Below, one piece after another: positions 4,994 through 20,347 of a stretch of 24,000 nt of DNA. The DNA comes from Bacteriovoracaceae bacterium (GTDB lineage Bacteria; Bdellovibrionota; Bacteriovoracia; Bacteriovoracales; Bacteriovoracaceae): contig JBBARE010000001.1 of assembly GCA_040399915.1 (NCBI GenBank), positions 44,100 through 68,099 on the forward strand, written 5' to 3'. How positions within the stretch are numbered: position 1 is the first letter of the stretch; every line of letters starts with the position of its first letter. A program made the position numbers and the translations under genes. The notes beneath the pieces were generated by a model, which was not told where the DNA came from, ran no database searches, and was given only the letters and a program-made list of their open reading frames with translations.

Positions 4994-5695
4994 ATGAAAC
5001 AACTATTTCTCGCACTTTTCCTGTGCCCTATTTTTCATGCACACGCGCAACTCACAAATGAATCAGAGGTGGGTATTGCCTCGGCAAATGGAAACACCCG
5101 AACACAAACCTATAACATAAAACAACTTAATGATTATAAGTGGGAGCAAAAAACCATTGGTTTTCGTTCACGCTATTTAAATGCTAAGGCCAATGGTATT
5201 GAGACAGCGCGCTTTTTTATGGCGGGAACCAGATTTGAACAAAAAACGACAGACTTTATTTCGCTCTACTTAGGTGAGACTTTCGAAAAAGATAAATTCG
5301 CCAACATTGACAAACGTCTCATGACCGACGCCGGTGCAAAATATATTGCTCTAGAAACTGAAAGAACAAAATTTTTCACAGAGCTGGGTTATCGCTATAT
5401 GCATGAAGATCGCCTTGACGACTCTACCGCGTTTAGTAGTTACGGCCGCCTTTATTCAGAGTGGGAACATAAATGGAACCCGGGATTTTCAACTCGTTAT
5501 TTGGGTGAATACCTTCCGAACATTTCTGAAGCAAACGACTGGCAATTTAATACTGAGCTTTCTGCGTCTGCTGTGATGACGAGCATTTTCTCGTTAAAAA
5601 CAGGTATTCTTCTTCGCTACGATCACTTGCCAGCACCGGGTGTAAAATACAAAACAGATACTCTCTTTACGACAGCGATTGTAGCGAAATTCTAG
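4994..5695 (+). CDS. DUF481 / YdiY-family outer-membrane beta-barrel protein
   Basis: Signal peptide MKQLFLALFLCPIFHAHA|Q. The family-typical GIASANGNTRTQTY motif (compare GYLAQSGNTKSS in E. coli YdiY) is present, with alternating beta-strand pattern and a C-terminal aromatic residue (VAKF). AAGGAG lies 7 nt upstream of the ATG. Confidence 0.8.
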   Translation: MKQLFLALFLCPIFHAHAQLTNESEVGIASANGNTRTQTYNIKQLNDYKWEQKTIGFRSRYLNAKANGIETARFFMAGTRFEQKTTDFISLYLGETFEKDKFANIDKRLMTDAGAKYIALETERTKFFTELGYRYMHEDRLDDSTAFSSYGRLYSEWEHKWNPGFSTRYLGEYLPNISEANDWQFNTELSASAVMTSIFSLKTGILLRYDHLPAPGVKYKTDTLFTTAIVAKF

Positions 5696-5715: not shown

Positions 5716-6552
5716 CTATTTAAAGCTATTCCCTTTACTGTAGAAAGTAAAACCTCCGCGGGTAAATGAACTGAACGGAAACTCAATTTTTGAAATGGAA
5801 TCAGTAGAGCCAATAACCAATATGCCGTCTGCTTTCAAACAAGAGGCAAAATTCTGCAGGATGAGTCTTTTATTAGCATCAGAGAAGTAGATGAAAGCAT
5901 TACGACAAAATATTATATCATAGCGCTGAGAACTTTGAGGTACTCGAAGCAGAAGATTTTCAGTACGAAAATCACACATGCCTTTAATCTGAATTCCAAC
6001 AGAGTGAGCATCTTCTTTTTCTTTGAGAAAATAACGACTGAAATAACCGCGGGGAACATCTTTAAGCGAACGCCCAGAGTAGACACCTTTTTTCGCCTTA
6101 TCAATAACTGCACGATCTAGGTCTGTACCCAAAACTCGTATGGAAGGAAAAACATTTCTGTCGAGTAATTCATTCAGAATAATCGCCATGGTGTAAGCTT
6201 CTTCCCCACTTGAACAAGCAGCAGACCAGAAACTAAAGGTAACGTCCCCGTTTCTTCTTTTTTTATCTACAATTTCAGGTAAAAGTAATTCTGAAAAAGC
6301 TTGAAGCTGACGAAACTCACGAAAAAAATACGTTTCATGTATTAAAAAATTTTCTGCAATTTCGATTAGTTCTTTGGACGTTGGAGATGCTGTTAAGAAA
6401 TTAAGAAAATCATGCTCGTGCAAAAATCCCGCTTTTGACTGGATAGAGCCGAGGGTAGACATTTGGGACATGAGCTTATTTTCATCGCAACGAATGCCGT
6501 ATTGTTTTTCGATGAGTAACGAAAGAGAGCGAATGGTTTCTTTATGCCACAT
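5716..6552 (-). CDS. cheR: Chemotaxis protein methyltransferase CheR
   Basis: Motifs ETYFFREFRQL, FWSAACSSGEEAYTMAIIL, VLGTDLDRAVIDKAKKGVY and IFCRNAFIYF. The ATG overlaps the cheB stop by 11 nt. Confidence 0.9.
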   Translation of the reverse strand: MWHKETIRSLSLLIEKQYGIRCDENKLMSQMSTLGSIQSKAGFLHEHDFLNFLTASPTSKELIEIAENFLIHETYFFREFRQLQAFSELLLPEIVDKKRRNGDVTFSFWSAACSSGEEAYTMAIILNELLDRNVFPSIRVLGTDLDRAVIDKAKKGVYSGRSLKDVPRGYFSRYFLKEKEDAHSVGIQIKGMCDFRTENLLLRVPQSSQRYDIIFCRNAFIYFSDANKRLILQNFASCLKADGILVIGSTDSISKIEFPFSSFTRGGFTFYSKGNSFK

Positions 6553-7459
6553 CAGAATTTCCCTTTATCACTCTTGACCATTTATGGATAAAGTCAGGGA
6601 TATCTAGCAAGCTAATCTCATTTGAAGTCGCTCCCATTTCGAGAGCAGTCTTAGGCATCCCAAATACAAGGGCAGATTGTCGTGATTCAGCAAAAGTCGA
6701 CGCCTCTAGATCTCTGGATAGTTTTAGCGCAAGCGCCCCATCGCTTCCCATTCCTGTCAAAATACCTGCGAGAAGATTCTTCCGAAATGCCAACGCAATA
6801 GAATAGAGAGAGAGGTCAATGAGAGGCTTGTGAAGTGTTTCTGGTGTGGTTGTTTGAAAAAAAACGGGCTTATGATTCCTATCTACCCCAAAAAATGATT
6901 GAAAACCTGAGGGCAAAACATACCACTTTCCTGGATTTAAAGGCCCAAGATGAGAGGCTTCGCAAATCATTAATTTGTCCTTGCGAGATAGATGATCCAC
7001 TAACCCTTGGGTCTGACCAGCAGGCATATGTTGAGCTAATACATAAATTGTTTGAGAGTTTAGCTGTATTTTAGGGAGAATTTTTTCAAGTGCTGCAGGC
7101 CCACCTGTACTAAGGCCAAGGAAAACGATATTTTGACTCGGCGTCATCCGGTAAGTAGCGGTCTTAAAGAGATGCCAGTATTCAGGGATCTGCGAAAAAA
7201 TATAAGGAAGGACACCAAACTTCATATCCTCTAGACCTTGATGAACAGGAACATGAATAGTCTTATTAAAACCAGCCAATGCCATAGACTCATCTGCAAT
7301 TAAAATATTAAAAAAATTTTCGTCGAGTGCTTGAAATTTATTATCTGCTCGTATTTTTGCATAAACTCGAACGCCAGCAGATAAAAGGTTTGATTCAATC
7401 CAGCTTCGAAAGACGGGTGAACTTGAATGAATAAAAATACGGATGTTACTAGGCTGCAT
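6542..7459 (-). CDS. cheB: Chemotaxis methylesterase CheB with a degenerate N-terminal receiver-like domain
   Basis: The catalytic domain carries GLSTGGPAALEKILP (Ser), AQHMPAGQTQGL (His) and LTGMGSDGA (Asp). The N-terminal ~100 aa are receiver-like but have IFIHSSSP where the DD acidic pocket is expected. The maximal ORF extends to a GTG at 7507. I prefer the ATG at 7459 (MQPSNIRIFIH) because it gives an 11-nt overlap identical to three other junctions in this block. Confidence 0.85.
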   Translation of the reverse strand: MQPSNIRIFIHSSSPVFRSWIESNLLSAGVRVYAKIRADNKFQALDENFFNILIADESMALAGFNKTIHVPVHQGLEDMKFGVLPYIFSQIPEYWHLFKTATYRMTPSQNIVFLGLSTGGPAALEKILPKIQLNSQTIYVLAQHMPAGQTQGLVDHLSRKDKLMICEASHLGPLNPGKWYVLPSGFQSFFGVDRNHKPVFFQTTTPETLHKPLIDLSLYSIALAFRKNLLAGILTGMGSDGALALKLSRDLEASTFAESRQSALVFGMPKTALEMGATSNEISLLDIPDFIHKWSRVIKGNSDVA

Positions 7460-8339
7460 GCTTAACAAACCAGTCTGAGTTAATAAAAAAGATTGTTCTG
7501 TCTTCACTAATACGCAACATTTTATGAATCCACGATTTACCCATACCGCTAAAAGTATCAGACAATAATTCCAAGCCGCTTTGCGAGAATGGAGTGACTT
7601 CTGTCATAAGCTCTACACGGTAGCCTATTAACTGATCCTCACACTTCACTACAATAATCTTTGAGGTATCTTTCCCCCCATTAAGATCTAAGTTCTGAAT
7701 TCCGGCAATTTTTCTGAGATCAATAACGGGAAGAACAATTCCACGCAAGTTTATGACCCCTTCAATAACAGATTTTGTATCAGGTACGGAACGGGATTCT
7801 TTACCTCTGATAATTTCAACAGTTTCTTCAATCGAAAAAGCATACTCACAGTTGCCGAGCTTAAAACAAATCGCTCTAGACGATGGAGTTGCTTCTTTAA
7901 CTAATGCAGCCGTATCAGAATCTACATTTTTTTCAGTTACAGACTCATCAGAAAAGAGATGATCCAAATCCAATAAGTAAATCGGTGCTAAAAAATCAGG
8001 CAAACTAAAAATGCGCTGACAAAACTTCGGAGATCCGCTGCTTTGTCCATGCGGTTTCTGTTGAACAGAATCCGAGTCCACATCAAAAATTCGACTTACC
8101 GAAGAAGTTGATAAACCGAGCATGTTCCCTTGTCGCTCTAACAAAATTGTTTTTTTGACTGTTTCTGATGAAGGAGCTCCCATTAAGAAGCTTCCGGCAT
8201 CACAAACCTTAATAAATTTCCCTCTGATACACTCCACTTGCTCTGAAACTGAAAGGCCATCACGTCGTATGACTTCTCTTACGTCACTTAAGGATACGGC
8301 AAAGTTGGTATCCGAAGCTTTAAATATAATAACTTTCAT
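7449..8339 (-). CDS. cheW: Double CheW-domain coupling protein
   Basis: There are two CheW-like modules. The N-terminal one is divergent (KVIIFKASDTNFAVSLSDVREVIR). The C-terminal one is canonical (ICFKLGNCEYAFSIEETVEIIR...VINLRGIVLPVIDLRKI...IIVVKCEDQLIGYRVELMTEV). The ATG at 8339 is preceded by GAGG at 5-nt spacing. The ORF track starts 2 codons earlier at a GTG (8345). Confidence 0.85.
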   Translation of the reverse strand: MKVIIFKASDTNFAVSLSDVREVIRRDGLSVSEQVECIRGKFIKVCDAGSFLMGAPSSETVKKTILLERQGNMLGLSTSSVSRIFDVDSDSVQQKPHGQSSGSPKFCQRIFSLPDFLAPIYLLDLDHLFSDESVTEKNVDSDTAALVKEATPSSRAICFKLGNCEYAFSIEETVEIIRGKESRSVPDTKSVIEGVINLRGIVLPVIDLRKIAGIQNLDLNGGKDTSKIIVVKCEDQLIGYRVELMTEVTPFSQSGLELLSDTFSGMGKSWIHKMLRISEDRTIFFINSDWFVKHAA

Positions 8340-8348
8340 AGGCACCTC

Positions 8349-10265
8349 TTACATGTATCCAAATTCTTTAACCATCGAAGACACCTGCTCAACCTGGAGA
8401 CTTAAATCTTGAGTTGAGGTTGACTGGCGTTTAGCAATTTCTGCAGACGACTTAGCACTCTCAGAAATGATTCCGGCAGCACGACTTACTTCCTCAACAA
8501 TAACAGATCCGTTTTTACAAGATTGTTCAGACTCAACTGCTTTTGAGACCATTTCATTTGCAAGTTCAGTAAATGATTTAGCGCAATCGATGAGGTTTTG
8601 CATTTGAACAACAGATTCTTCTGCTCTAATGAAATCACGCTGAGCAGATTGATTCACGCGACTGATGTAATTCTGAACAAGGATTGTTTTTTCGTAAATT
8701 TTATCTAGAAGATCTTCAATAAGATCTGAATTAGAAGAAGTATCTGATGCTAGCGAGCGAATATCGCCTGCCACAACAGAAAATCCCTTCCCTGACTCAT
8801 TTGCCCTTGCCGCTTCTACACCACCACTAACTGATAGCATATTAGTCATAAGGGCGTTTTCACGAATAGAGCGTATGAACTTTTGAATTTTTGATACAGA
8901 AGATTTTAATTCCGATGCGTTGTCCTGAGATTGGCGCGAGGAATTTGCTGTTTTTGAAAGACTTTGTTGGATTCCAACAATAATTTCTGTCAGTTTCTGA
9001 AAAGTTTGCTCAATTGAATGCCCTGAAGCTTTAAAACTTTCAGCACTCTTAAGAATTGATTCAATTTTTGCCCGAGCATCCTGAATGACGATAAGAGATG
9101 AATCAGCTTGTTCAGACTGAGAGCTTGCACCTTCAGCAATTAGACTAATGGCCGCTGCAACTTCCTGAGCAGAAGCATTTGTTTCCTGAACAGTTGCTGT
9201 GAGCTGCTGGGAAGAAGAAGCGAGCATATCTAAGTATTCGGAGCTGTTGTTTAACAAATACTTTCTTGATTTGTCGCTAAGAAGCTTGGAAGATTCCATA
9301 ATGTCAGTCATGGCAACAAATTGTTCTTCACAACTTGCGAGAGCTTCAGCTCCAGAAGAAGAAGTTTGTGCTGTTGCCGCTGCAACTGAATCTACACGTT
9401 GTTTAAACGATAAAGCGTCTCGAGTGACGTCTTCAGTATCTCTTGCCATCTTACCGGCTTCAGTTGAAACCAGCTTAATGACTTCAGAAATTTCACCCAA
9501 ATGATTAATGACGACTTTAACATTTTCAATATCCGTTTTAGCTGATTCAGCACCACTATTTGAAAGAGACATGATAAGTTGAACATGTCCATGAATAGAA
9601 GAAATTGTTTCTGTGACAAGACAAGCACTCTTTTCAGCAATTTCTGCAAGATTTCTTACCTCATCCGCCACAACTGCAAATCCTAAACCCTCGCTCCCAG
9701 CGCGTGCAGCCTCGATTGCAGCATTTAATGCAAGAAGATTCGTTTGTTCAGCAATGTCTGCCACCGCTGTAATAACAGAACTAATTTCTTTTGAAGATTG
9801 CTGAAGTTCAAGCACTAAGCGACTAGTTTCAAGACACACGCCCCCTGCATCTTCAACAGAATGTTTCCAACCACTGACACCACGAAAAAACTCTTGGATT
9901 TGCGATTGTAAAAGTCCTGCTTTGTTGTGAGCAGTCTGAGAATGGTCATTAAGATTCTTAGAGTTATTTAGAATCAAGTCACCTATTCGAATAGATTTAT
10001 CAACTAGAGATCTGACGATATTACTTTGGTCGTTGACTTCAGACATGGTCACTTTTAGTTCCTGAGCAGAGTCTGAAATGCTTTCAGAAGTCGAGGCGAG
10101 ATCTTCAGTCAAAAGATTTAATCGCTCAGCAGCTTGCTGCTTAAGCCATTTCTTACGCTCTGAGATTCTACTCCCAGTATCATTGGCACTATTGACGACC
10201 TCAAGAATTTGGCGTTTTTGGGGGGAAGGCGAATCAATTTTTGTAGGTTGCTCTAATTTCTTCAT
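8349..10265 (-). CDS. Soluble (no TM segment) methyl-accepting chemotaxis protein with two tandem signalling-hairpin modules
   Basis: Canonical tip [38 protein letters not shown] (aa ~170-208) plus a second, divergent tip [39 protein letters not shown] (aa ~469-507). Heptad-spaced methylation-consensus matches ATVQETNA and ASAQEVAA are present. The N-terminus is hydrophilic. ATGA overlap with the cheA stop. Confidence 0.9.
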
Positions 10266-11950
10266 GCGCTTTTCTCCTTGAGCGTGAGTTCGAGATTATC
10301 TCGATCGTTTATTTTTTCTGTAATAAGTTTTTTTAAATCTAGAAATGGAACAGGTGTACCGTCTCCGATAATGGACATACCGAGCATACCAGGTGCGGTA
10401 CTCATCCAACGGCCTACTGGTTTGACCATGTGCTGCCCTTTAGAGCCGACATGATCAACTGGGATGCAGAAGTAACTGTTATTAACATTAACGATGATCC
10501 CAGTCGCTTTTTCGGAAACGATGAGATTATCAAGATTTGTATCAAGAGGAATAAATTGATGAGAAACTCCGGCCATCTGATAAACGATTAGATCAGGAAC
10601 TGGAGTTCGAATTTTCTTACGATCGATATTTATTACTCGAGTCACACCATTGATTGATACAAGATATGATTTTCCGTTGTGTTTTATAGAGAGAGCTTCC
10701 GAAAGACCATTGCACAACGGAATTTGTAAATTAAACTGAGTCCCAAAATTAATTTCCGTATGAATTCGTAATGAACCACCTAATGATTCAATATTTGTCC
10801 GAACAACATCTAAACCAACACCTCTGCCTGAAAACTCAGAAACCTGTTCTGCGGTTGAAAATCCAGGTGCAAATAAAAGCTCTAACACTTTGCCTTCAGA
10901 CCAGACATCTGCTTCGGCGCCAACGATGCCTTTTTCTTTTGCTTTTGCGAGAATTTTTTTTCCATCAATTCCACGCCCATCATCTTTGATGGTTATTTCA
11001 ACGACTGTTGGTTCAACATTAATGTGAATAGATAAATTTCCAGTTTCAGTTTTTCCTCTTCCTAATCTTTCTGACGGAGTTTCTAACCCATGATCAAGAG
11101 AGTTACGTACCATGTGAACGAGTGGATCTACTAAGGCATCTAAAATGGGTTTTTCAACGTAGTCAGTATTTGATGTGAAATTAAATAAAATTTTCTTATT
11201 TAACTTGTGGGCGGTATCTCTCACGACTCTGGAAACTCGTTGTTTAAGGGGATCAAGAGAACTTTTTTTCATATCAAGGACACGTTCGTTTAGTTCACGG
11301 ATATTTTTGTCCATAAGGCCAACAACGATTTGAAGTTGACGAGGCTCAAAAATATTTGAAAGAAGCTGTGCTCTGAGAGTTGCAAGCTCTCCAACAACTT
11401 GTTGAATATTATTAACCCGATCTAATGGAACCTTTAGTACTTGTTGATTGGGTTGTCCGACTTTCCTAGGCCCTGCTTGCTCTGGTTCTTCATGGTTAGT
11501 TTCTGATGCTGGACTTGCCTCAACAACATTCTTTTGGATTGCCATTTCAGCTTCAACGATTGAAACTTCTGCATTAATACGCTCGATCATTTTTTCAACT
11601 GCTACTTTGTCAATATCTTGCTTTGATGCAACAAAATTGAAGCAGTTTTTTAGAAGATCAGTTGTCTCAAGCATGAGACCGTTACGTTCCTTTGAATTAA
11701 GGTCAGGCCTTTGTCTTAAATAAGTTAAAAGATTTTCAAATTTATGTGCAAAGCCTGAGATATATTCAAGACCAACTGCTGCTGAAGACCCCTTTAAATT
11801 ATGGGCCACCCGGAAAGCTTCATTCAGAGCATCCACAGAACCAGGATTCTCATCTAAAATGAGGAATTTCTTTTCCATCGATTCAATCAGCTCAAGCGCC
11901 TCTTGAACGAAAATCTGCATAATTTCAAAAAGTTCGTCATCATTTTCCAC
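10262..11950 (-). CDS. cheA: Chemotaxis histidine kinase CheA (P1-P3-P4-P5; no recognisable P2)
   Basis: Hpt motif [16 protein letters not shown], dimerisation region [22 protein letters not shown]-box [17 protein letters not shown]1 DDGRGID, F-box [12 protein letters not shown]2 GRGVGLDVV, and a C-terminal CheW-like domain. Only about 40 aa of linker lies between P1 and P3. GTG start at 11950 ([20 protein letters not shown] fits typical CheA N-termini). Confidence 0.9.
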
Positions 11951-13232
11951 AGTGATCCTTTGAACACATCAACTGCTGTGTCTCAAAAAAATGAGATAAA
12001 TCTTTTCCGCGTGAATTTTCTAGTAAATTCTCTGTTCGGTCATCAACGACAATTTCATAAAGAGAACAGGTCAAACCAGAGAACTGGTAGAGACGTTCAA
12101 TCGCGCAATCTTTTTTTGTTAGACTAAGATTAAATTCAACAAACACAAAAACTTGAAGTCCATTTTGAGTCGGTTTTATAGAGACATTAAGTGCATTGAT
12201 ATCTTTTAAAAGATTTTCTTCCAGGGTTTTAAGATTTATCCATTGTCCAGACGAGGATTTAATCTTCTCTGATGCGCGACAAATGACATCAATCCTTCCA
12301 TCATCGGTTTCTACGCATAAGTCATTTGTTGGTTGCCAATCACACGGAGTTTTAAGGTCATCACCAAGACTCCAACTTTCTGATTTCACAAAAAGCTCAC
12401 CGTCTTTGATTTTAACTTCGCATCCGATCGCGCGACCATTTAATAAAACACCAGGCCCAGCTTCAGTTAAGCCGTAACCTTCATAAACTTTCCCTTCTTT
12501 AATCCAGTCCTTGCAACGTTCAGCGAGAGAGTGATTTAACCTAGCACCACCAATAAAAATTGAATCAGGTGCTCGAGGAGTTTGACGATTATTATAAAGA
12601 ATAAGCTCTAATTGTCTTGGAACCAAAGAAAGGTGCTGAATATTGTATGTATCAAGCATCGTCGTCATCCACTTGCGAGAACCTCGTAATTTTTGATCAG
12701 CTGGGCAGTAAACGACAGACTTTGAATAAAGACCAAGAACAAGATCAAGAACAAGCCCAAATGCATGGCCCCAAGGAAGTATAGCAAGTCGTTCAGTCTC
12801 AGATTGGTAACTAAAAAACTCACTATGATTTTTTAGCTGGAGAAGAATTCCTTGCCGAGTATAGTACCGAGTCTTAGGTTCACCAGTTGACCCAGAAGTT
12901 TTAAGTTCAAGTAGGATGTCTTTATTTCGGAGAGCGTGAGAGTTTGTTGATTGAAGAATACCTCTTGGTTTTGAGTCATCTGGTACAAAGACGTAGTGCC
13001 CGATAATAGACGCAAAAAAGTCTATGATAAATTCTTTACCAAATGAAGGAGAGGAGATTCTATCACCAGGGCGCGCCCCTAGCCTTTTTAATTCCGTTGA
13101 GCGTTCAAAAGCGAGCGACCAAATATTTGGTCCTGATAATACCTCTGAAACTTTACCAAACTCATCGCACCATGCAACAGATGGATGTTGTAGATCGCAA
13201 AGTATATTTCGAAAAGTGCGACTAAGATCCAT
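11940..13232 (-). CDS. pcl: Short adenylate-forming acyl-CoA ligase, probable p-coumaroyl-CoA ligase (pCL) for PYP chromophore activation
   Basis: AMP-binding motifs LKTSGSTGEPK and YEGYGLTEAGPG, and a TND..DDGRIDVICRASEKIK region (TGD-like). Its ATG overlaps the upstream lyase stop by 11 nt, and it is in one block with pyp. Confidence 0.75.
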   Translation of the reverse strand: MDLSRTFRNILCDLQHPSVAWCDEFGKVSEVLSGPNIWSLAFERSTELKRLGARPGDRISSPSFGKEFIIDFFASIIGHYVFVPDDSKPRGILQSTNSHALRNKDILLELKTSGSTGEPKTRYYTRQGILLQLKNHSEFFSYQSETERLAILPWGHAFGLVLDLVLGLYSKSVVYCPADQKLRGSRKWMTTMLDTYNIQHLSLVPRQLELILYNNRQTPRAPDSIFIGGARLNHSLAERCKDWIKEGKVYEGYGLTEAGPGVLLNGRAIGCEVKIKDGELFVKSESWSLGDDLKTPCDWQPTNDLCVETDDGRIDVICRASEKIKSSSGQWINLKTLEENLLKDINALNVSIKPTQNGLQVFVFVEFNLSLTKKDCAIERLYQFSGLTCSLYEIVVDDRTENLLENSRGKDLSHFFETQQLMCSKDHCGK

Positions 13233-14586
13233 AGGAATTCCAAGATTTTAAGTGGAGTTGTGGACTTACTTCTTCTCCGCGTCGGAGCGAAAACGCTCTA
13301 TCGAAGACGAAACTTGTTGCTCGAATCATCTCTCGAGCAATTTCCATTTGTTGAGAAAGACTATTAAGAGCTGCCATCCCACAGGGAACGATGTCTTGAT
13401 TGTTACCTTCACATGAGAAACTTAGCATGCGAGAAGGTACCTGATGCGATTTGAGTTGCTGCAGGAGTGAAGACATTAACTGATGAATGCCCTTCAAGTG
13501 TGATTCGCCTTGAAGTTCTAAATTTCTTGGCAAACCATTATTAAGATCAGGCGACATAAATATTAGCACTTGCCGATCAAGCATCTCACAAATACGAAAT
13601 ACTCCATCAGCGATAAGGTCAGCTGCCTGAGCAATTGGAAGCGCATAAAAATGGCCACCATGCCAGATCTCATTTTCAAGCACAACTGGGTTATCAGCAA
13701 TTCTTAGAGCTTCAAGTTCAATCCGTTCACCTGCTTGCTTAAAGCTCCAGAGAGCACTACCAAGAACATTTGGCGAGCAACGGATAGAGTATCTTGCTTG
13801 TTCTTCACCAGCACCTTGGATTGAAGTTGCAGTTTCCGATTTCTCAAAATCAGAGATAATATCAACCATTCGTTTTGCTACATAGGAAACATTTGTGCAC
13901 TGATGAGGAAGATCAATTCCAGAAGATGTAAAGTGACGAACACCGTATCCTGAAGCGTAACTCCCAATAGAAGCTAATCGAATGGCATCATAAAGGAAAT
14001 TATTGGCCTGTGAGAAAAGTTCAATCCCAAAACTTGCCATTACGGAATTTGTATTAACTAAAGTAAGGACATCCCTTGGACCCTGTACATCGTCTTTTTG
14101 ATTAAAAAGGGGAGCGACAGCATGTGCCATAGTGACCAAATCACCACTGGCACCGAGACTTCCATAACAAGGAACCTGGGGCATTGATTCGGATTCACAA
14201 AGTTCAATAAGCCGCTTAAAAGTTTCAGGATGAATACCTGAAAATCCAAGCGAACTTTTATACGCCTGAAGCTTTAGTGCACGACGAACAACCGATTCGG
14301 GTAGTGTCTTACCGACTCCAACTTGCAAATATTTTAAAAGAGCAAACTGATGTTCTTTCCAATCATTACTTGCAGAGGCTTTTACATCTGATCCAAACCC
14401 AGTGTGTAGACCATAAATTTTTCTATCGCTATTATTCGTATAGTTAAGAAGACGTTGATACGATTCAGAAACTCCTCGCTCGCTTCCCGCCGGTAAAGAG
14501 AATGAAGCTCTATTTCCCCAGGCAACAAGGTCTAGAAGATCAGGCGCAACTTTAGATGTTTTTATTTGAGTGTATTTTTCTATCAT
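13222..14586 (-). CDS. tal: MIO-dependent aromatic amino-acid ammonia-lyase, probable tyrosine ammonia-lyase (TAL)
   Basis: HAL/PAL/TAL family motifs YGLHTGFG and GSLGASGDL (the Ala-Ser-Gly MIO triad is encoded at 14143-14151). The substrate-switch position reads Tyr-Leu (LLKYLQVGVG), closer to PAL/TAL [F/H]-L than to HAL S-H. It is adjacent to pcl and near pyp. Confidence 0.8.
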   Translation of the reverse strand: MIEKYTQIKTSKVAPDLLDLVAWGNRASFSLPAGSERGVSESYQRLLNYTNNSDRKIYGLHTGFGSDVKASASNDWKEHQFALLKYLQVGVGKTLPESVVRRALKLQAYKSSLGFSGIHPETFKRLIELCESESMPQVPCYGSLGASGDLVTMAHAVAPLFNQKDDVQGPRDVLTLVNTNSVMASFGIELFSQANNFLYDAIRLASIGSYASGYGVRHFTSSGIDLPHQCTNVSYVAKRMVDIISDFEKSETATSIQGAGEEQARYSIRCSPNVLGSALWSFKQAGERIELEALRIADNPVVLENEIWHGGHFYALPIAQAADLIADGVFRICEMLDRQVLIFMSPDLNNGLPRNLELQGESHLKGIHQLMSSLLQQLKSHQVPSRMLSFSCEGNNQDIVPCGMAALNSLSQQMEIAREMIRATSFVFDRAFSLRRGEEVSPQLHLKSWNSYGS

Positions 14587-16001
14587 GATGCACCCTTTAA
14601 GTTATGAACATCAATTATATTGATCAGGCTATCGCCTCCGATAACGACTCCCAGGCAACTTTTACTTTCTTTGATTCCTATGCCCGGCTTAAGGGAGCCA
14701 CGAACGATTCCTACAACTTCCTCAACTTCAATGACAAACTGCCCTGCGCCCACATCATCAATCACAACGTATGAAGATTTAGAAGTTGTTGCTTGAGCAC
14801 CAAATCCAGTAGATTCTTTTAAAGAAATCAATGGAAGATTTTGAGACGAATTTATAGATGCGAGTCTTTTGATTTTATCCAGCTCAATGACTGAAACATT
14901 TTTTTCAATGCGGACAACATAGTTTGTAGAAATTCCAAAAAGCTGAAACTTATCATTTTGAGCTTGTCTCACGACCAGATATTCATGAAGACTGCGAAGA
15001 TCGCAGTGAAAAACCAAAGAACTCGACGAGTCAACCTTTGAAGTCTCTATCAAAACACCCAAGTGGGCAAAGCGTTTTAAATCAAGCTCTACCGGTGTAC
15101 TTGAGTCAGAATCCTCAATGAATTCGAAACGGAGTCGTCCCTTTTCGCGCTTTACTGACCAAGAAATGTTGACATGAGATTCATTAAAAGCATGTCGACT
15201 CTTAGCATTTTTTTCGCGAATTGAAAAAATACACTTCATCCATTCCTCAGCTATTGTTCGGAACGCAGTTGCAACTTCAGGTGCAATTCTTATGTTCTGA
15301 TCACAGTCGCCAATATTTAGAACTGCACGGGTGTTTGATTTTCGTAGCCACGGAGTTAATAGAACGAGAAGGTTTTCATTCAAATCTTTTACGTTTAACC
15401 AAACAGACTGAGCATAAATTTCAGCTACTTTAAGGATAGTATGATCCATTTTTTTAATTAAATCTGGATTGCGGATAACAATATCGTCGCGGGATTGAAA
15501 AAGGGATTCGTTAGTCAACTGCGAACATTTATCAAAGGATTCAACAAGATCGTAAAAACGATTAGCTAATGATGTTCTGTATTTTATCGATTCAACAGGC
15601 TCACTTGCAATTTTGTAAACCCAGAAAAGATCTTCCGAATTAATAAAGGTTTCAATGACACCAAGAATATAGGAGAGGCAGGCACCCTTTGCCATGAGAA
15701 AGGGTTTTGCCTCCCCTAATGAAAATGTTTGGTATTGCATTTGATTGTTGTATCGGTTCCACTCGAGTCGAATTTCAAGCCAAAGAGAAGGGAGAGAGCC
15801 GTGAGCTTCAGAGTCATCATCGTCGATACGGAGATCGTTGATACTTGAAGAAATTCCTTCAATTGTATCATTGTAAAACTTATGGATTAATTCCACTTCG
15901 TCTTGCTTTAGAGTATCGAGCCCTTCAACCATTTGATCGAATAAAGCACGTGTATCGCTGCTCTGTAATGTTTCAACTATTTCATTCGTTCTGAAGTTCA
16001 C
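14583..16001 (-). CDS. Hypothetical protein with a C-terminal CheW-like domain preceded by a degenerate CheA P4-like (pseudo-kinase) region; N-terminal ~210 aa unassigned
   Basis: The C-terminus YLVVRQAQNDKFQLFGISTNYVVRIEK...YVVIDDVGAGQFVIEVEEVVGIVRG...CLGVVIGGDSLINIIDVHNL resembles CheW/P5. The preceding AVLNIGDCDQNIRIAPEVATAFRTIAEEWMKCIF...GRLRFEFIEDSDS follows the CheA P4 layout but lacks N-box and G-box residues. GTG start at 16001 with GGGGAG 7 nt upstream. ATGA overlap with tal. Confidence 0.55.
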   Translation of the reverse strand: MNFRTNEIVETLQSSDTRALFDQMVEGLDTLKQDEVELIHKFYNDTIEGISSSINDLRIDDDDSEAHGSLPSLWLEIRLEWNRYNNQMQYQTFSLGEAKPFLMAKGACLSYILGVIETFINSEDLFWVYKIASEPVESIKYRTSLANRFYDLVESFDKCSQLTNESLFQSRDDIVIRNPDLIKKMDHTILKVAEIYAQSVWLNVKDLNENLLVLLTPWLRKSNTRAVLNIGDCDQNIRIAPEVATAFRTIAEEWMKCIFSIREKNAKSRHAFNESHVNISWSVKREKGRLRFEFIEDSDSSTPVELDLKRFAHLGVLIETSKVDSSSSLVFHCDLRSLHEYLVVRQAQNDKFQLFGISTNYVVRIEKNVSVIELDKIKRLASINSSQNLPLISLKESTGFGAQATTSKSSYVVIDDVGAGQFVIEVEEVVGIVRGSLKPGIGIKESKSCLGVVIGGDSLINIIDVHNLKGAS

Positions 16002-16011
16002 AATGGCTCCC

Positions 16012-16416
16012 CTATCCTACGTTTGGCATCCTACCGACAATTGCAGCCTCAAAAAGAGCAGATCCAAGCTCGCGAGCACGCTTTTGCATCTCTATACGCT
16101 CTTCACCACTTTTCGCAACTTTGTGCTCTAAATCCATCTTTTCATCAATGAGTGATTTTACCTGGTCCTCAAGACTAGTGATCATTTCTGTCACTTCAGA
16201 TGATCCAGATGATCCGGTTGAAGCAGTCGGGAAATTCTTTTCCTGGTAAATCGAATTTAATTGTTCTTCAAAGCTTGCTACAGCTTCGCGCAATTCATGA
16301 ATTTCTGATTCGTTACCGTCTGACTGCTTTTCATCGTACATGGCAATCAATTGATTCTCCATGCTCTGGAGAGATTCGCGCAAACTTTCAACAGTATCAC
16401 GATTGTTATTAAACAT
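16012..16416 (-). CDS. Small acidic coiled-coil protein with a three-fold internal repeat (unknown function)
   Basis: 134 aa from the ATG at 16416 (MFNNNRDT...). An AGGAG lies 7 nt upstream of this ATG and overlaps the pyp TAG stop. The repeats are ESLRESLQSMENQLIAMYDEK, ELREAVASFEEQLNSIYQEK and EMITSLEDQVKSLIDEK. The longer ORF-track start (16479) would overlap pyp by 53 nt and is unlikely. Confidence 0.65.
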   Translation of the reverse strand: MFNNNRDTVESLRESLQSMENQLIAMYDEKQSDGNESEIHELREAVASFEEQLNSIYQEKNFPTASTGSSGSSEVTEMITSLEDQVKSLIDEKMDLEHKVAKSGEERIEMQKRARELGSALFEAAIVGRMPNVG

Positions 16417-16426
16417 AGTAAATCTC

Positions 16427-16801
16427 CTAAGCAGCTTTTTTCTGAACGAAAACCCAGTTTGTTTTTGTACTCTTATCATGCAAAAGATGAATCTGAACGT
16501 TTGTCGGCCTCATTTTATAAGTGAAGGTATAATTGAAAGCAGAATTCAGATCTCCCATTTCAATACCAGACTTAAATTTTCCAAAAAAAAGTTTATTGTT
16601 CGTACAAGGAGCCACTTCTGTAAAAAAGTTTTTACCTTCTGCCGTTACTGCAGCAACACCTGCAAGTTCAGATTCATAACGATTATAAAGTAAAATTTTT
16701 CCATTATTATCTACTTTTACAATCCCGTAAGGAACATTATCCACCTCCCCGCGCGTGAGTGAACCAAGTTTAGAAAGGATGTCTGGCGTAACAAAACTCA
16801 T
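16427..16801 (-). CDS. pyp: Photoactive yellow protein (PYP), single-domain PAS blue-light photoreceptor
   Basis: It aligns along its whole length with Halorhodospira halophila PYP recalled from memory. [51 protein letters not shown] matches [61 protein letters not shown] matches ILQYNAAEGD, and the C-terminal NWVFVQKK matches YWVFVKRV. The chromophore Cys is encoded at 16604-16606. The ATG at 16801 has GGGAGA 7 nt upstream and gives 124 aa. The ORF-track start at 16822 adds 7 residues. Confidence 0.92.
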   Translation of the reverse strand: [124 protein letters not shown]

Positions 16802-16836
16802 ATCAATATCTCCCGTTTTCATGACTCGTCATTGAG

Positions 16837-17913
16837 TCAAGCTGCAATTTTAAATTCGTCTGATTGTTTTTTCTCTAATACGACACAAAGGCGTATGACA
16901 GTTTTCATGACTTTATCAAAAGCTAAGCTTTCTTCATTTTCTGATTGATTCTCCAGAAGATTTTCAAGCTTAAGACCTACATCGATCAATTTTTGTGCTT
17001 GTGTATGAAATTCTTCATCTGTCGTTGCCATCAAAATCCCGACTCGCAATTCTCTAAGGGTATTAGAAACCTCGGAGAACTCACTTGAAAAAGCACTACG
17101 AACTTCTCTTTCTTTAACAAGAAATTCGATTCCACTTGAGAATTCTTTTACCCATTCTTCGTAATCAAAACTATTAAGGAACGATGCATTTGTTAATTGT
17201 GCCTCTTTGAATACAGAGATTTCCTTAACCTGATGCTTTTTTCCAAGGAGATAAGCGACAGTTAAAAAAATGAAAACAAGAGCAACAGAGGGAAAGATTG
17301 GTAGCCTGGATTCTCTTTGCTCGCCTGCTGGAGAACGATCGCCCTTTGAAAGTTCTGCTCGTGCCTTTGAGACAAGTTCTTTGAGCTGATCAATTTGCTG
17401 TTTATCTAAACTAACAATAAAATTTGGATTTTGTTGATACCATCTGATTGACCAAAGAGAAGAAAGATCATCAATTGATTTTGTTAAAGCACCAGACTTC
17501 AATGGTTTTCTTGATTGATTAAAAAAGTTTTGATCACGAAGATCAAGAATACTTAAAAGTAATTTCTTGAAAGAAGACCACTCTTTAACAGATTCATCAA
17601 GCCCATAAAAAAGAGCTTCGTTTTCGAGTTGTTCCCAATCAGTTCGCAAACTCGACGTCAAAGAAGTTGACCGTAAAGATGCTGGCACTTCAGACGCAGG
17701 AATACCTGAGGGGTCATGCGCAATTGTAAAATAAAGCTTTTCTTCAAATTTTTTAAGTGACTGCCATTTAACAAGAGGGACTATTTTTTTCTGGTGATTT
17801 GAACTTAAGCTCAATTCAACTAAGCGAAGCGCTTCAGCTAGTTTTTCATTTGCTCCAAGAGAGTAACTCGCAGTAGAGCAAAAAATTAAAACAGTTAAAA
17901 TTATTTTGAGCAT
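16837..17913 (-). CDS. Membrane protein with receptor-like topology (N-terminal signal/TM1, ~180-aa periplasmic region, TM at aa ~204-224, ~130-aa helical cytoplasmic tail); function unknown
   Basis: N-terminus MLKIILTVLIFCSTASYSLGA, and a hydrophobic segment LPIFPSVALVFIFLTVAYLLG followed by KKHQ (positive-inside). Strong RBS GGGAGGA 5 nt upstream of the ATG at 17913. It is the first gene after a 337-nt AT-rich gap, and its stop is 35 nt from the preferred pyp start. Confidence 0.7.
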   Translation of the reverse strand: MLKIILTVLIFCSTASYSLGANEKLAEALRLVELSLSSNHQKKIVPLVKWQSLKKFEEKLYFTIAHDPSGIPASEVPASLRSTSLTSSLRTDWEQLENEALFYGLDESVKEWSSFKKLLLSILDLRDQNFFNQSRKPLKSGALTKSIDDLSSLWSIRWYQQNPNFIVSLDKQQIDQLKELVSKARAELSKGDRSPAGEQRESRLPIFPSVALVFIFLTVAYLLGKKHQVKEISVFKEAQLTNASFLNSFDYEEWVKEFSSGIEFLVKEREVRSAFSSEFSEVSNTLRELRVGILMATTDEEFHTQAQKLIDVGLKLENLLENQSENEESLAFDKVMKTVIRLCVVLEKKQSDEFKIAA

Positions 17914-18250
17914 TAAATCCTCCCTAATGAAATCTTAGAGACAATTCGGTTTAAAAACAGAGGGCATTATTTTCTAATCTTAAAATATTAAAAAGGAAAT
18001 TTCTGCTTCTCTCCTATTACTCAGACAAACTGCTGAATTCACTCTGGGAAGTTGTTAAGAACTATTTAATATGTTGGTTTATTTTTAATACTTTTTGAAA
18101 CCTTAAGAGACAAAAATATTTATCGCAAAGAATTCTCATTCGAGAAAAAATACAATTAAGAAAATTAAGAAACGACGACGCAAATACAATCTTAATTTTT
18201 AAAAATAAGACAAGAATATAAAAAAATCAGAGAAGTATTTTTTTAAAAAC
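17914..18250 (-). promoter_or_regulatory. AT-rich intergenic region, presumed promoter/operator region of the pyp-che block
   Basis: This is the only sizeable non-coding gap upstream of the 11-gene block. It contains AATTAAGAAA / ATTAAGAAA tandem copies (18154-18172) and an inverted copy (CTTAATTTTT, 18191-18200). I could not identify -35/-10 boxes confidently. Confidence 0.3.
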
Positions 18251-20347
18251 TTATTTAACTTTAAGACAAACACCAAAATAGCCTGGACCCTTATCAATCC
18301 GCCCTTCTGCCTCAAGAGGAATCATCGCCATTGGTCCTGAACCTGAGGAGAGAGGAATTTTAATAGTCTCACTTATCAATTCAGTTAATTTTTTATCGAT
18401 CGTGCTTTTCACGATACCGCTGAAGAAACTACTTTCTTTAAGTGCGTAGCGAGCAGTACCAGGAACAACGTTCCAATGAGCATTTCCATTTTCAAGACAG
18501 AAAGCACTGTCGTCACAGATGTTAGGAGTGAATCCAATTTCAAAATTAATATCACCGGCAATTTTACCTTGTCCAAGCGCAACTGCTCCACGAAAACATT
18601 CTTTTGTCTTAAAATCGACTTTATAGCCTCCAGACGTCTGATCAAATTTTAATTGGGGAGCACCATTTAAAAAGCAGCGCATTCCACCTTGGCTTTCTTC
18701 AATCGAAAATGAACAGCCATTTCCACGCGGAGACCCGTCTCCATTACGAATGATTTCATTTTTATTGTTTGTTTCTGGAATGAAGTCGCCCTTACCGCTA
18801 TGACAAAGTCTGCCGGATTTATACATCTCAGTCATGAGCGAGTTTATTTCATTTAAATCGACATAAGTCTGAATGGGGCAATTAGGAATGCTTTTCCTCT
18901 CGTGAGGAGACGGATTATCTATATCACATAATTCAGGAATACTTATCCTAAAACCTGCAGTTGATCCGTTTCCAAGATTTGTCATCAGGAGAACGTTGTT
19001 AAAGAGACCTGACTCGAGCTGCTTGTCTGCAATTTTCTTGTTGATAGGTTGAAGTTTTGATTCAAAAATTGATCCGAGATTCAAAGCTGTCATCCGCTCT
19101 TCAAAACTTGCTACTCTCTTTCTAATATCTTCAGACGTCACCTGATCATAGCGCACCATCTGATCCTCAATCATTTTGGCAGCATCTGCAGGTCGTGGAA
19201 TATCTTTAAGAAGTAGTGTTTTTTTCTTAAATGGGTAAAGCTGGTTTAAACACTTATGTTCAACAGGAATTGTTTTTTTCTCTTGTTTTAGAATTGAGCA
19301 ATCCATCAGGTCGACATATTTTTTCACGGCCATGTTTCCAACGCCCATTTCTGAAAGAAAAGAATTAGTGGGTACAGAAATTTGAGTAGGTTCTTTTTTA
19401 TCGAGTTCCGTAATCATGGTCGAAACCTGAAGCTGGAAAGTTTTCGCAAGAGATGCCTGAACAGCATCCTCCATGGTTGGTCTGAAATATCTGGCAAGGG
19501 GTGGAATCGCCGTTAATTTCAAAATACTTTGAGTGGCAGGAGAATAACCTGACAGTCCTCTTATATTTGAACCAGCAAGAGCTTCGTTAATCATACCGTC
19601 TGAAACGAAGTTTCCATTTTTTCTTTCAATCAAAATTTCTGATAACGGTTCTGCAGAAGTGAGATTGAGTTTCGCATTCATGCAAACTTCGCGCTTACCA
19701 TCAAGTTTGATATTGATGTTATCCATTCCCATACGTTCATACTCAAGGTTTTCTTCCTTACTGAACTCAACATCAACCCCAACGCTAATCTCCAACGCTA
19801 AAATATCAAAACAAGCTTTAAGCACTCCATCAGCTGCTGAAACACTCAAAGGCTTCATATCAAGCTTTTTAATGCCAACTGGTTTAGGGAAGTGAATCAT
19901 AGACGGGCGGGCAAGACTTTTAGGACCACATTTTTCCATTCCCTGGCTTCCCATGATTAGTGAACACGGCAGAGTTGTACAAATTTCTGTCTTCACTTCC
20001 ATGCTTGTGTCCGGACTCGCACAGATTCGTGGATCTTCACAATTAATGGCTTTAAACTTTGGATCTCCCTGCGCTTTTTCTTTTTTACAAATAATGATAT
20101 TGGGCGGGAATCCAACTGATTCCATGGAATAATCAGTTAGAACTTTTGCTTTGAAGCCGTCCGAATTAAAAAGAGCCGTGAGTGATGGTACAAGGGCATC
20201 ATGCAGTTTTGGAGAGCTTGATGAAGCAGTTTTCAGTGCTTCACCTTCAACTTCCATGCGCATAAGTTGCGACCGACAATTACAATCAATTTGTGCGTTG
20301 GTATTTGTGATAACAAATAAGAGAAGAAGCGAAGTCCATGTTCTCAT
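18251..20347 (-). CDS. Secreted cysteine-rich protein of unknown function (paralog B)
   Basis: Signal peptide MRTWTSLLLLFVITNTNAQ. It is collinear with the upstream paralog, for example IPELCDIDNPSPHERKSIPNCPIQTYVDLNEINSLMTEMYKSGRLC versus LPELCSDKPSPHAGKKIKNCPVQVYADLNEFNKVLKKMFDTGRLC, with C-terminal GPGYFGVCL versus GPGYFGACL. ATGA overlap with the upstream gene. Confidence 0.8.
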   Translation of the reverse strand: MRTWTSLLLLFVITNTNAQIDCNCRSQLMRMEVEGEALKTASSSSPKLHDALVPSLTALFNSDGFKAKVLTDYSMESVGFPPNIIICKKEKAQGDPKFKAINCEDPRICASPDTSMEVKTEICTTLPCSLIMGSQGMEKCGPKSLARPSMIHFPKPVGIKKLDMKPLSVSAADGVLKACFDILALEISVGVDVEFSKEENLEYERMGMDNINIKLDGKREVCMNAKLNLTSAEPLSEILIERKNGNFVSDGMINEALAGSNIRGLSGYSPATQSILKLTAIPPLARYFRPTMEDAVQASLAKTFQLQVSTMITELDKKEPTQISVPTNSFLSEMGVGNMAVKKYVDLMDCSILKQEKKTIPVEHKCLNQLYPFKKKTLLLKDIPRPADAAKMIEDQMVRYDQVTSEDIRKRVASFEERMTALNLGSIFESKLQPINKKIADKQLESGLFNNVLLMTNLGNGSTAGFRISIPELCDIDNPSPHERKSIPNCPIQTYVDLNEINSLMTEMYKSGRLCHSGKGDFIPETNNKNEIIRNGDGSPRGNGCSFSIEESQGGMRCFLNGAPQLKFDQTSGGYKVDFKTKECFRGAVALGQGKIAGDINFEIGFTPNICDDSAFCLENGNAHWNVVPGTARYALKESSFFSGIVKSTIDKKLTELISETIKIPLSSGSGPMAMIPLEAEGRIDKGPGYFGVCLKVK

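Follow-up and report, generated by a model that had tools for sequence, protein, structure and literature searches.

Photoactive yellow protein (PYP) has served as a model photoreceptor for about 40 years, and the relay of its signal is still called a key gap (PMC12826048; bioRxiv 10.1101/2021.06.01.446672). The locus described here makes that question concrete. It lies in a 24,000-nucleotide stretch from the genome of a predatory-type bacterium of the Bacteriovoracaceae (contig JBBARE010000001.1, forward-strand positions 44,100 to 68,099; hereafter the window, numbered from its first letter), in which a run of minus-strand genes encodes a PYP, enzymes resembling those that make and activate its chromophore, a set of chemotaxis (Che) proteins, and a membrane protein, a coiled-coil protein and a second CheA-like protein. 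To what does a free-standing PYP in such a setting pass its signal? On balance, we lean towards the view that these genes form one operon building a blue-light-sensing cytoplasmic chemosensory array. That PYP signals into this array by way of the coiled-coil protein (cc) and the N-terminal domain (Ndom) of the CheA-like protein also appears somewhat favored by the gene content and its conservation. Of all the cases we found, this locus gives the most explicit genomic indication of a free-standing PYP communicating with a chemosensory array.

An eleven-gene cluster of pyp and che genes

The first-pass annotation of the window, made from its sequence by a model, had described an eleven-gene run on the minus strand from 17913 to 5716. 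A check of the open reading frames (ORFs) placed every one of these genes exactly there, and profile searches upheld all of the domain calls. In order of transcription, the genes and the spacer that precedes them are as follows, where TAL stands for tyrosine ammonia-lyase, pCL for p-coumarate-CoA ligase, MCP for methyl-accepting chemotaxis protein and HMM for hidden Markov model.

16837..17913, minus strand: membrane protein, 358 aa (hydropathy; no Pfam or NCBIfam match)
16427..16801, minus strand: PYP, 124 aa (TIGR02373, E 7e-36; PDB PYP chains, E 6e-30)
16012..16416, minus strand: cc, soluble repeat coiled-coil protein, 134 aa (family HMM)
14583..16001, minus strand: CheA-like protein, 472 aa (domains listed below)
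13222..14586, minus strand: TAL-like aromatic amino acid ammonia-lyase, 454 aa (PF00221, E 3e-72)
11940..13232, minus strand: pCL-like short adenylate-forming ligase, 430 aa (PF00501, E 2e-21)
10262..11950, minus strand: CheA histidine kinase, 562 aa, P1-P3-P4-P5 (Pfam Hpt, HATPase_c and CheW; NCBIfam CheA, E 2e-84)
8349..10265, minus strand: soluble MCP, 638 aa (two MCPsignal stretches, E 5e-48)
7449..8345, minus strand: concatenated double CheW, 298 aa (PF01584, two stretches, E 1e-35)
6542..7507, minus strand: CheB methylesterase, 321 aa (PF01339 at residues 128-306, E 3e-37)
5716..6552, minus strand: CheR methyltransferase, 278 aa, the final gene of the cluster (PF01739, E 9e-50)
17914..18250, minus strand: AT-rich non-coding spacer, 337 bp, upstream of the first gene (read directly)

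From the membrane-protein gene to cheR, the ten junctions measure +35, +10, +10, -4, -11, -11, -4, +3, -59 and -11 nt, with overlaps as negative values; the stop codon of the pCL-like gene overlaps the start of cheA by 11 nt. The tight spacing reported in the first-pass annotation thus stands, and its upper limit of 35 nt does not, since the overlap of double cheW and cheB is 59 nt when the longest ORFs are taken. An overlap of this same length is seen between the longest ORFs at 7449-7507 in the window, at 8511-8569 in locus L008 and at 10617-10675 in locus L009. Clear Shine-Dalgarno sequences precede several starts, including a GGGAGG 7 nt 5' of the ATG at 17913, and the spacer upstream of that codon is likely, from its position and composition, to be the promoter region of the operon. 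Ten terminator-like sites were found within the cluster where 9.8 were expected, which is the chance level, and promoter-like and terminator-like matches together were at or below the level of shuffled sequence. An Rfam search of the window gave no RNA family match. The next gene after cheR (4994-5695, DUF481) lies on the plus strand.

The arrangement is conserved. A Bacteriovoracaceae metagenome-assembled genome (MAG; locus L009) keeps all 11 genes in the order of the window, at 45-90% amino acid identity, and a contig labelled Bacteriovoracaceae (L008) has the same order for eight genes before the contig ends, at 61-89% identity. A third MAG (L010, which shares its contig with L001) contains the complete set of eleven, with cheA relocated to the 3' end, after cheR; its GC content is 58%, against 40% in the window, and its proteins are 29-78% identical to those of the window. 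Sharing of this kind implies one of two histories: the operon was retained from ancient times, or it was transferred horizontally as a unit. The cluster arrangement is not due to chance, and the survival of the full set despite rearrangement and strong divergence speaks for a functional link between its pyp and che halves. The expectation that pyp, tal and pcl would sit beside che genes in related genomes was borne out in all three loci, and this conserved synteny strengthens the original description of a dedicated PYP-plus-Che module, in its gene identities as well as its operon-like packing.

The PYP aligns end to end with Halorhodospira halophila PYP structures, at 39% identity. Its start at 16801 is backed by the lengths of its homologues (122-124 aa) and by a GGGAG Shine-Dalgarno sequence. 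In the alignment, Y39, E43 and C66 correspond to Tyr42, Glu46 and Cys69 of the H. halophila protein, while Ala and Val occupy positions 50 and 52 (Thr50 and Arg52 in H. halophila). The search recovered 452 PYP homologues. Across 121 members of the clade of the window PYP, Y42, E46 and C69 are kept in all or nearly all sequences, and A50 with V/I52 is the norm. The PYPs of Leptospira, which belong to clade B (PMC9664959), are 65-67% identical to that of the window, and the L. biflexa protein is listed as photoactive at 457 nm with a photocycle of 0.35 s (PMC12826048, Table 1). With this homologue for comparison, p-coumarate binding and a photocycle are predicted from the sequence of the window PYP.

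The genes for the two putative chromophore enzymes follow that of the CheA-like protein. The lyase contains the Ala-Ser-Gly triad (in a GASGD motif) that forms the 4-methylideneimidazole-5-one (MIO) group, and its top NCBIfam matches are the HAL and TAL models, every one of them below cut-off. For the ligase, the 25 NCBIfam matches listed include generic acyl-CoA and o-succinylbenzoate-CoA (OSB-CoA) ligase models, all of them far below cut-off, and no dedicated pCL model. In at least nine loci (L001, L004, L007, L008, L009, L011, L015, L036 and L037), however, the ligase gene is conserved together with both pyp and the TAL-like gene.

The Che proteins make up a recognizable array. In CheA, the catalytic motifs are intact (H50 in HNLKG, the N box, G1 as DDGRG and G2 as GRGVG), and no P2 domain could be detected. 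In the MCP, AAIEAAR (at about residue 182) and GGVEAAR (at about residue 481) mark two signalling hairpin tips; the two halves of the protein are homologous to each other (E 2e-11), and candidate methylation sites lie at residues 349-390. Hydropathy and Pfam revealed no hydrophobic or transmembrane segment and no sensor domain. At 88-90% identity in L008 and L009, it is, like PYP, among the most conserved proteins of the cluster. The first-pass annotation was correct in calling this receptor soluble; more exactly, its sequence places it in the DosM-type double signalling domain architecture. CheB has the catalytic Ser, His and Asp motifs (STGG, HMP and GMGSDG). Its N-terminal 110 residues gave no Pfam match to a receiver domain even at E 10, and about 120 N-terminal residues are without a recognizable receiver, reading HSSS where the acidic pocket would be expected. 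The kinase, receptor and adaptation set described earlier is thus complete, with two qualifications: its CheB has no recognizable receiver, and a CheY output is missing from the cluster.

By the architecture of its MCP and CheW, the system looks like an F9 system. DosM and multi-domain CheW proteins are signatures of F9 cytoplasmic arrays, which have two layers, and 98% of DosM homologues are without sensor domains, so that F9 arrays need separate sensory proteins (PMC9321776, PMC7534058). The input and the physiological role of F9 systems are reported as unknown (PMC7534058, PMC9321776). The locus offers a candidate stimulus for arrays of the F9/DosM type.

Two protein families that accompany PYP

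Which proteins could carry light information from PYP to such an array? The first-pass annotation had named the three unassigned proteins of the cluster as candidate missing links. For two of them, the 472-aa protein (14583-16001) and cc (16012-16416), comparative support is strong. The case for the membrane protein (16837-17913) is weak, since its conservation does not extend beyond close relatives.

The 472-aa protein had been labelled CheA-P4/P5-like. That label was right as far as it went; a fuller description is a new N-terminal domain followed by P3, a degenerate P4 and P5, as listed here.

15597..16001, minus strand: Ndom, residues 1-135 of the 472-aa protein (AlphaFold2, pLDDT 80-95 across the domain)
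14583..15596, minus strand: P3-P4-P5 body of the 472-aa protein (Foldseek to CheA P3P4P5)
about 15405-15596, minus strand: P3-like helical hairpin (predicted structure)
about 15000-15392, minus strand: degenerate kinase-like P4 (predicted structure)
about 14592-14990, minus strand: CheW-like P5 (predicted structure; Pfam CheW at residues 355-468, E 1e-5)

These boundaries come from an AlphaFold2 model built from 27 family members, with a mean pLDDT (predicted local distance difference test) of 84.6 and a pTM (predicted template modelling score) of 0.74; an earlier model from 7 sequences had a pLDDT of 65.6. The parts of the model are a helical N-terminal region (residues 1-133), a long helical hairpin (135-199), an alpha/beta part (204-334) and a beta-rich part (338-470). 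A Foldseek search of the PDB returned 6s1k_A (4.6e-17) and 1b3q_A (2.6e-16), over about 390 aligned columns, as well as 3ja6_C (1.6e-15), and residues from about 135 to 470 superpose on P3-P4-P5 of E. coli and T. maritima CheA. The relationship is seen by structure comparison only, as BLASTP of the 472-aa protein against the CheA of the operon gave nothing significant. A word-indexed search found 7 relatives only; an HMM search of 1.84 billion cluster representatives found 24 at E<1e-30 and 126 at E<1e-3.

The 472-aa protein has no Pfam match to Hpt, and no His is invariant across its family. In a visual reading, the His..N..H pattern of the N box was not evident at the aligned position, and the G1 box, DDGxG in most relatives, reads EDSDSS in the subgroup of the window. 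With no Hpt and degenerate ATP-binding motifs, the protein is CheA-like in fold and was not filed as a kinase; from these sequence features it is most likely not one. It is regarded here instead as a scaffold that would enter the baseplate of the array through P5 and P3. A protein of 685 aa (P0246) has the reciprocal architecture, with Hpt and HATPase_c followed by a C-terminal Ndom (556-683), and no Pfam match to CheW/P5.

Ndom is all-helical in the model and bears the motif WLExRxEWxRYNxQMQYQ..G.A.P.LMA.G. It is not an Hpt domain, as it has no conserved His. No relative was found in Pfam or among PDB sequences, and every match of the profile search was named 'hypothetical' or had no name. 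The domain occurs as stand-alone proteins of 130-200 aa, as tandem repeats of two or three copies and as fusions to CheA-like bodies. Two or three copies per protein are seen in P0152, P0157, P0159 and P0198, and two or three consecutive stand-alone Ndom genes follow pyp in loci L025, L026 and L035.

The association of Ndom with PYP is strict. Loci were seeded with Ndom through a genome scan, a metagenome scan and look-ups of three stand-alone members, and were annotated with PYP, Ndom and cc HMMs. Among the resulting 25 non-redundant loci, pyp lies within 1.5 kb in every informative one (16/16); in the remaining 9 the contig breaks off on the flank expected to hold pyp. These loci span 37%-70% GC, and their MAG labels include Bacteriovoracaceae/Bacteriovoracia, Bdellovibrio, 'Erythrobacter' and Planctomycetota. 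Several layouts recur: cc, PYP, Ndom (one or two copies), Ndom-CheA-like and lyase; Ndom-CheA-like, TAL, PYP, cc and pCL; PYP, Ndom and a GAF-MCP; and Ndom, TAL, PYP, cc, pCL, an 88-aa ORF and an MCP. MCP genes end the Ndom/PYP loci L012, L034 and L015, the last with two MCPsignal stretches in its MCP. A stand-alone Ndom gene lies between pyp and the MCP gene in L012 and beside the MCP gene in L034. No PYP-Ndom fusion was present among the proteins retrieved.

The cc protein of the window consists of three copies of a motif, MENQLIAMYDEK, FEEQLNSIYQEK and LEDQVKSLIDEK, and then a C-terminal helix. The motif can be written as [LMF]E-x-Q-[LV]-x-x-[LM]-[YI]-x-E-K; members of the family have 3 to 8 repeats resembling SLEAQLxxLYEER, likewise with a C-terminal helix after them. 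No significant Pfam match was obtained for the window cc. The motif is specific to the family in our data set: as a regular expression it matched 23 of the 2099 ORFs in the full set of loci retrieved, each of the 23 being a cc gene. With the cc HMM, a cc gene was found immediately beside pyp in 7/7 PYP-seeded loci whose labels cover five taxa. These loci come from two Bdellovibrionota-like lineages, a Bdellovibrio MAG, a Leptospira genome (E 8.5e-15), and 'Erythrobacter', Planctomycetota and Kapaibacterium MAGs, the Kapaibacterium cc being a short version. The 134-aa neighbor of pyp in Leptospira was also considered as an Ndom protein; this was rejected, since the cc HMM identifies it as a cc protein.

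The two families are also joined to each other. Ndom-cc fusions occur in P0231 (Ndom and four cc repeats) and in P0186, which ties the families together functionally. Given their strict co-occurrence with pyp and their fusions to each other and to a CheA-like scaffold, Ndom and cc are concrete candidates for the missing partners of PYP.

By hydropathy, the membrane protein begins with a signal peptide or anchor (residues 1-20) and crosses the membrane with a single helix (202-225); its cytoplasmic tail is helical. Homologues in the same position occur only in L009 (45% identity) and L010 (29-30%), so its conservation is confined to the che-containing group.

Both families may be present in cultured bacteria. 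In a supplementary table of PMC12826048, the L. biflexa entry is an operon of two genes, one for a hypothetical protein of 134 aa and one for PYP, and that of Gemmatimonas phototrophica is an operon of a 185-aa protein, PYP, a 151-aa protein, a pseudogene and a 491-aa protein that "shares 51% identity with CheW"; the authors list the neighbors of the G. phototrophica pyp as hypothetical and did not analyze them. By size and position, the L. biflexa protein resembles the cc of the Leptospira locus L006, and by gene order and sizes, the G. phototrophica layout matches the arrangement cc, PYP, Ndom, Ndom-CheA-like. If layout is a guide, L. biflexa (for the cc position) and G. phototrophica (for the whole arrangement) are cultured carriers, and the idea is directly testable.

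Proposed route and possible output of the PYP signal

How, then, might light reach CheA? In the route that we propose, the TAL-like lyase and the pCL-like ligase would make and activate p-coumarate, which would be attached to Cys66 of PYP as in the H. halophila paradigm. The sensor-less, double-headed MCP would form a soluble two-layer array of the F9/DosM type together with the double CheW and CheA. Such an array would have no ligand-binding domain, and PYP would supply its light input by way of cc and Ndom. The CheW-like P5 and the P3 of the apparently dead CheA-like scaffold would place Ndom in the baseplate, where a light-driven change in PYP would alter its binding to cc and Ndom and hence the autophosphorylation of CheA. 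CheR and the receiver-less CheB would adapt the system through methylation of the MCP. Phosphorylated CheA would act on a response regulator encoded elsewhere, most likely a CheY acting on the flagellar motor, to give a photophobic or phototactic response. We infer the contacts, the direction of regulation and the output of this scheme from the observed gene identities, folds, motifs, synteny, co-occurrence and fusions.

A more specific version of the proposal is correspondingly more tentative. Ndom may be a docking domain for single-domain PYP, with cc as a multivalent co-partner, and its fusion to a dead CheA may be what makes an F9/DosM array without an input photoreceptive; we regard this as possible rather than probable. 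Were it true, it would give the first defined PYP signal-transduction chain and the first stimulus for an F9-type system, and the two new families would mark PYP signalling in Bdellovibrionota, Spirochaetota, Gemmatimonadota, Planctomycetota and Proteobacteria.

Several observations weigh against a light-fed Che array with cc and Ndom as relays. One is the lyase. Characterized TALs have a His-Leu selectivity switch (His89-Leu90 in R. sphaeroides TAL), and the window lyase reads Tyr-Leu in KYLQVGVG, not the TAL-type His. The Ala-Ser-Gly triad and KYLQVGVG are kept in all PYP-linked lyases of the window type; the lyases of about 560 aa in L017-type loci read His-Leu (YHL) at this position. Specificity for tyrosine is plausible on this evidence. 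Tyr-Leu lyases are seen in the window and in L001, L004, L007, L008, L009, L011, L015 and L030, and those linked to PYP may be a distinct TAL-like subfamily.

A further point is the score of the PYP itself, which at 123.1 bits is below the curated TIGR02373 cut-off of 143.05. It shares this with other proteins: the PMC9664959 dataset has further PYPs flagged 'photo_yellow (< cutoff)'. Scoring below this cut-off probably explains, too, why the annotation of several relatives goes no further than "PAS domain-containing protein". The likeness to F9 is incomplete as well, as the F9 criterion is a triple CheW (CheW3) and the protein here has two domains; a further CheW-like domain is supplied on a separate polypeptide, the 472-aa protein. 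In none of the four genomes does the cluster include a cheY gene that would define its output. The Leptospira and Kapaibacterium loci have cc with no Ndom within 8-10 kb.

Finally, the core of Ndom-CheA-like, TAL, PYP, cc and pCL genes also occurs without adjacent che genes (L004, L007, L011, L036 and L037). In L004/L005 (12078-14325; 37% GC), the genes that come after the core encode a PAS-HisKA-HATPase kinase and a response regulator of one domain, and the same input module may feed a two-component output in this lineage. In L007 and L036, nothing obvious lies near the core. In a Planctomycetota MAG (L037, 11508-16435), an Ndom-cc-PYP-pCL-TAL module adjoins gas-vesicle genes (GvpL/GvpF, an AAA ATPase and GvpA). 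This last neighborhood echoes the known one of pyp and gas-vesicle genes in Rhodobacter capsulatus. Loci of this kind can be taken in two ways: the module appears to plug into different outputs, or Ndom and cc could serve the maturation, storage or localization of PYP instead.

The second way leads to an alternative in which PYP acts directly on the MCP, in the manner of CetA/CetB and as published for Leptospira, and the 472-aa and cc proteins are structural or accessory: a scaffold or localization factor, or a chaperone or store for apo- or holo-PYP. Published adjacency of clade-B PYPs and sensor-less MCPs (PMC9664959) and published MCP-PYP fusions (PMC12826048) speak for contact between PYP and the MCP. 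The MCP is also among the most conserved proteins of the cluster, and the Ndom/TAL/PYP/cc/pCL core keeps its chromophore enzymes even with no che genes nearby, as an accessory role would allow. A maturation factor, however, would hardly be expected to be fused to a P5 and P3-P4 scaffold, as Ndom is. Stand-alone Ndom genes lie between pyp and an MCP gene in L012 and beside an MCP gene in L034. Moreover, TAL and pCL alone have sufficed to reconstitute holo-PYP in heterologous hosts, so additional maturation factors are not generally required. We consider this explanation unlikely, in either of its accessory versions, and retain relay through cc and Ndom as the favored reading.

An alternative of similarly low probability concerns what the array does rather than how it is fed, and is partly compatible with relay through cc and Ndom: the output may not be motility, being instead gene expression, development or predation behavior, a second messenger or buoyancy. 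The cluster and those of its relatives contain no cheY, cheZ or flagellar gene, the V. cholerae F9 system has no known motility phenotype (PMC7534058), and the PYP core sits beside a kinase/response-regulator pair in L004 and beside gas-vesicle genes in L037. Against this, CheA has a normal P1, for which some receiver protein must exist, and it is common for a CheY to be encoded elsewhere. Flagellar genes are present in 97% of the species that have an F9 system (PMC9321776), and the photocycle of the L. biflexa homologue is fast, in keeping with the timescale of taxis (PMC12826048). Phototaxis is a plausible output. Of the photosensory or phototaxis pathway put forward in the first-pass annotation, the dedicated PYP-Che module is well founded and phototaxis is only one of the outputs it could have.

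It is very improbable that the pyp-tal-pcl and che modules are merely juxtaposed or that PYP senses something other than light: although the TIGR02373 score is below cut-off and substituted PYPs proposed as redox sensors exist (PMC9664959), the pCL stop and cheA start overlap, the association has outlasted both the L010 rearrangement and large divergence, the clade has kept Tyr42, Glu46 and Cys69, and the operon includes TAL-like and pCL-like genes of its own.

Relation to known systems and flanking genes

How much of this is new? That PYP is coupled to chemoreceptors has been proposed before. Xing, Gumerov and Zhulin (2022, PMC9664959) found clade-B PYPs adjoining sensor-less MCPs and proposed a CetA/CetB-like input to phototaxis. 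Ppr, a protein that contains a PYP, uses its kinase domain to bind CheW (PMC2993699). Twelve MCP-PYP fusions have been published, and a survey of 113 pyp operons found MCPs as fusions only, with no MCP-containing pyp operon (PMC12826048, Table 2). In the accessible literature, which here excludes subscription journals, we found no pyp operon with cheA, MCP, cheW, cheB and cheR genes, no link of PYP to a DosM/F9-type array, no account of Ndom or cc as conserved PYP-associated families, and nothing relevant on PYP in Bacteriovorax.

The nearest relatives are the clade-B systems of Leptospira. Their single-domain PYPs belong to the same clade as that of the window, with the identity given above and the same Ala50 and Val/Ile52; a sensor-less MCP is nearby and a cc gene, listed only as a hypothetical protein, is immediately upstream of pyp. 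The differences lie in the signalling genes. The Leptospira MCP is described as membrane-bound and is divergently oriented in L006, whereas that of the window is soluble, double-headed and in the same operon as pyp, and the Leptospira locus has no cheA, cheW, cheB or cheR, no TAL-like gene and no Ndom within 10 kb, all of which are in the window operon.

The MCP-PYP fusions of Methylotuvimicrobium alcaliphilum and Nitrincola alkalilacustris (Dohmen et al. 2025, PMC12826048) are genetic evidence that PYP can feed an MCP/CheA pathway. In these proteins, a PYP closer to the H. halophila type (60.8% identity) is covalently attached at the C-terminus of the MCP, whereas the window PYP is free-standing and linked to its MCP by the operon and by Ndom and cc. 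A precedent for partners encoded by neighboring genes is the 142-aa PBP of R. capsulatus (RCAP_rcc01067), which is adjacent to pyp and forms light-switchable complexes with PYP in vitro (bioRxiv 10.1101/2021.06.01.446672). PBP is about the size of a stand-alone Ndom or of cc. The R. capsulatus PYP is a clade A protein encoded among gas-vesicle genes, unlike that of the window.

The pyp-pcl-tal operon of H. halophila likewise pairs PYP with a CoA-ligase-type enzyme and an MIO ammonia-lyase. It has three genes and no signalling genes, and its PYP is the more distant one compared above. The Tyr-Leu of the window lyase contrasts with the His-Leu that is usual at the selectivity positions.

For the che half, the closest counterpart is the F9 system (cluster I) of V. 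cholerae, which likewise has a soluble, sensor-less MCP (DosM) with two tandem signalling domains, a multi-domain CheW and CheA, CheB and CheR in one cluster (PMC7534058, PMC9321776). The input to its scaffold receptor comes from outside the receptor, as is proposed here. In the window, CheW has two domains rather than three and the cluster has no cheY, while a CheA-like pseudokinase and a photoreceptor with its chromophore pathway are added in the operon. A protein of Roseivivax halodurans with three CheW domains is encoded near a clade-A pyp and a pCL gene (PMC9664959 supplement), and proximity of PYP to F9-type components may recur outside the clade of the window PYP.

The 472-aa protein itself has several partial analogs. 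It may be likened to the split or atypical CheA3 and CheA4 of the cytoplasmic cluster of Rhodobacter sphaeroides. Array adaptors such as ParP use an accessory P5/CheW-like domain to enter the baseplate and bring another function with them (PMC5706961). In contrast to all of these, the 472-aa protein keeps P3-P4-P5, appears to be catalytically dead and has a PYP-linked Ndom in place of P1.

Two further features of the window lie outside the cluster. Directly upstream of the promoter spacer, two tandem overlapping genes on the minus strand (18251-22509) encode paralogues of 698 and 721 aa; both have signal peptides, many Cys residues and common N- and C-terminal motifs (ending in ...GPGYFG[VA]CL), and no Pfam match. 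On the plus strand, 2698-4746 encodes a 682-aa protein with no significant Pfam match. Near its C-terminus is an HExxH-like sequence, THEAHHLMQQH, and it may be an uncharacterized metallopeptidase-like protein.

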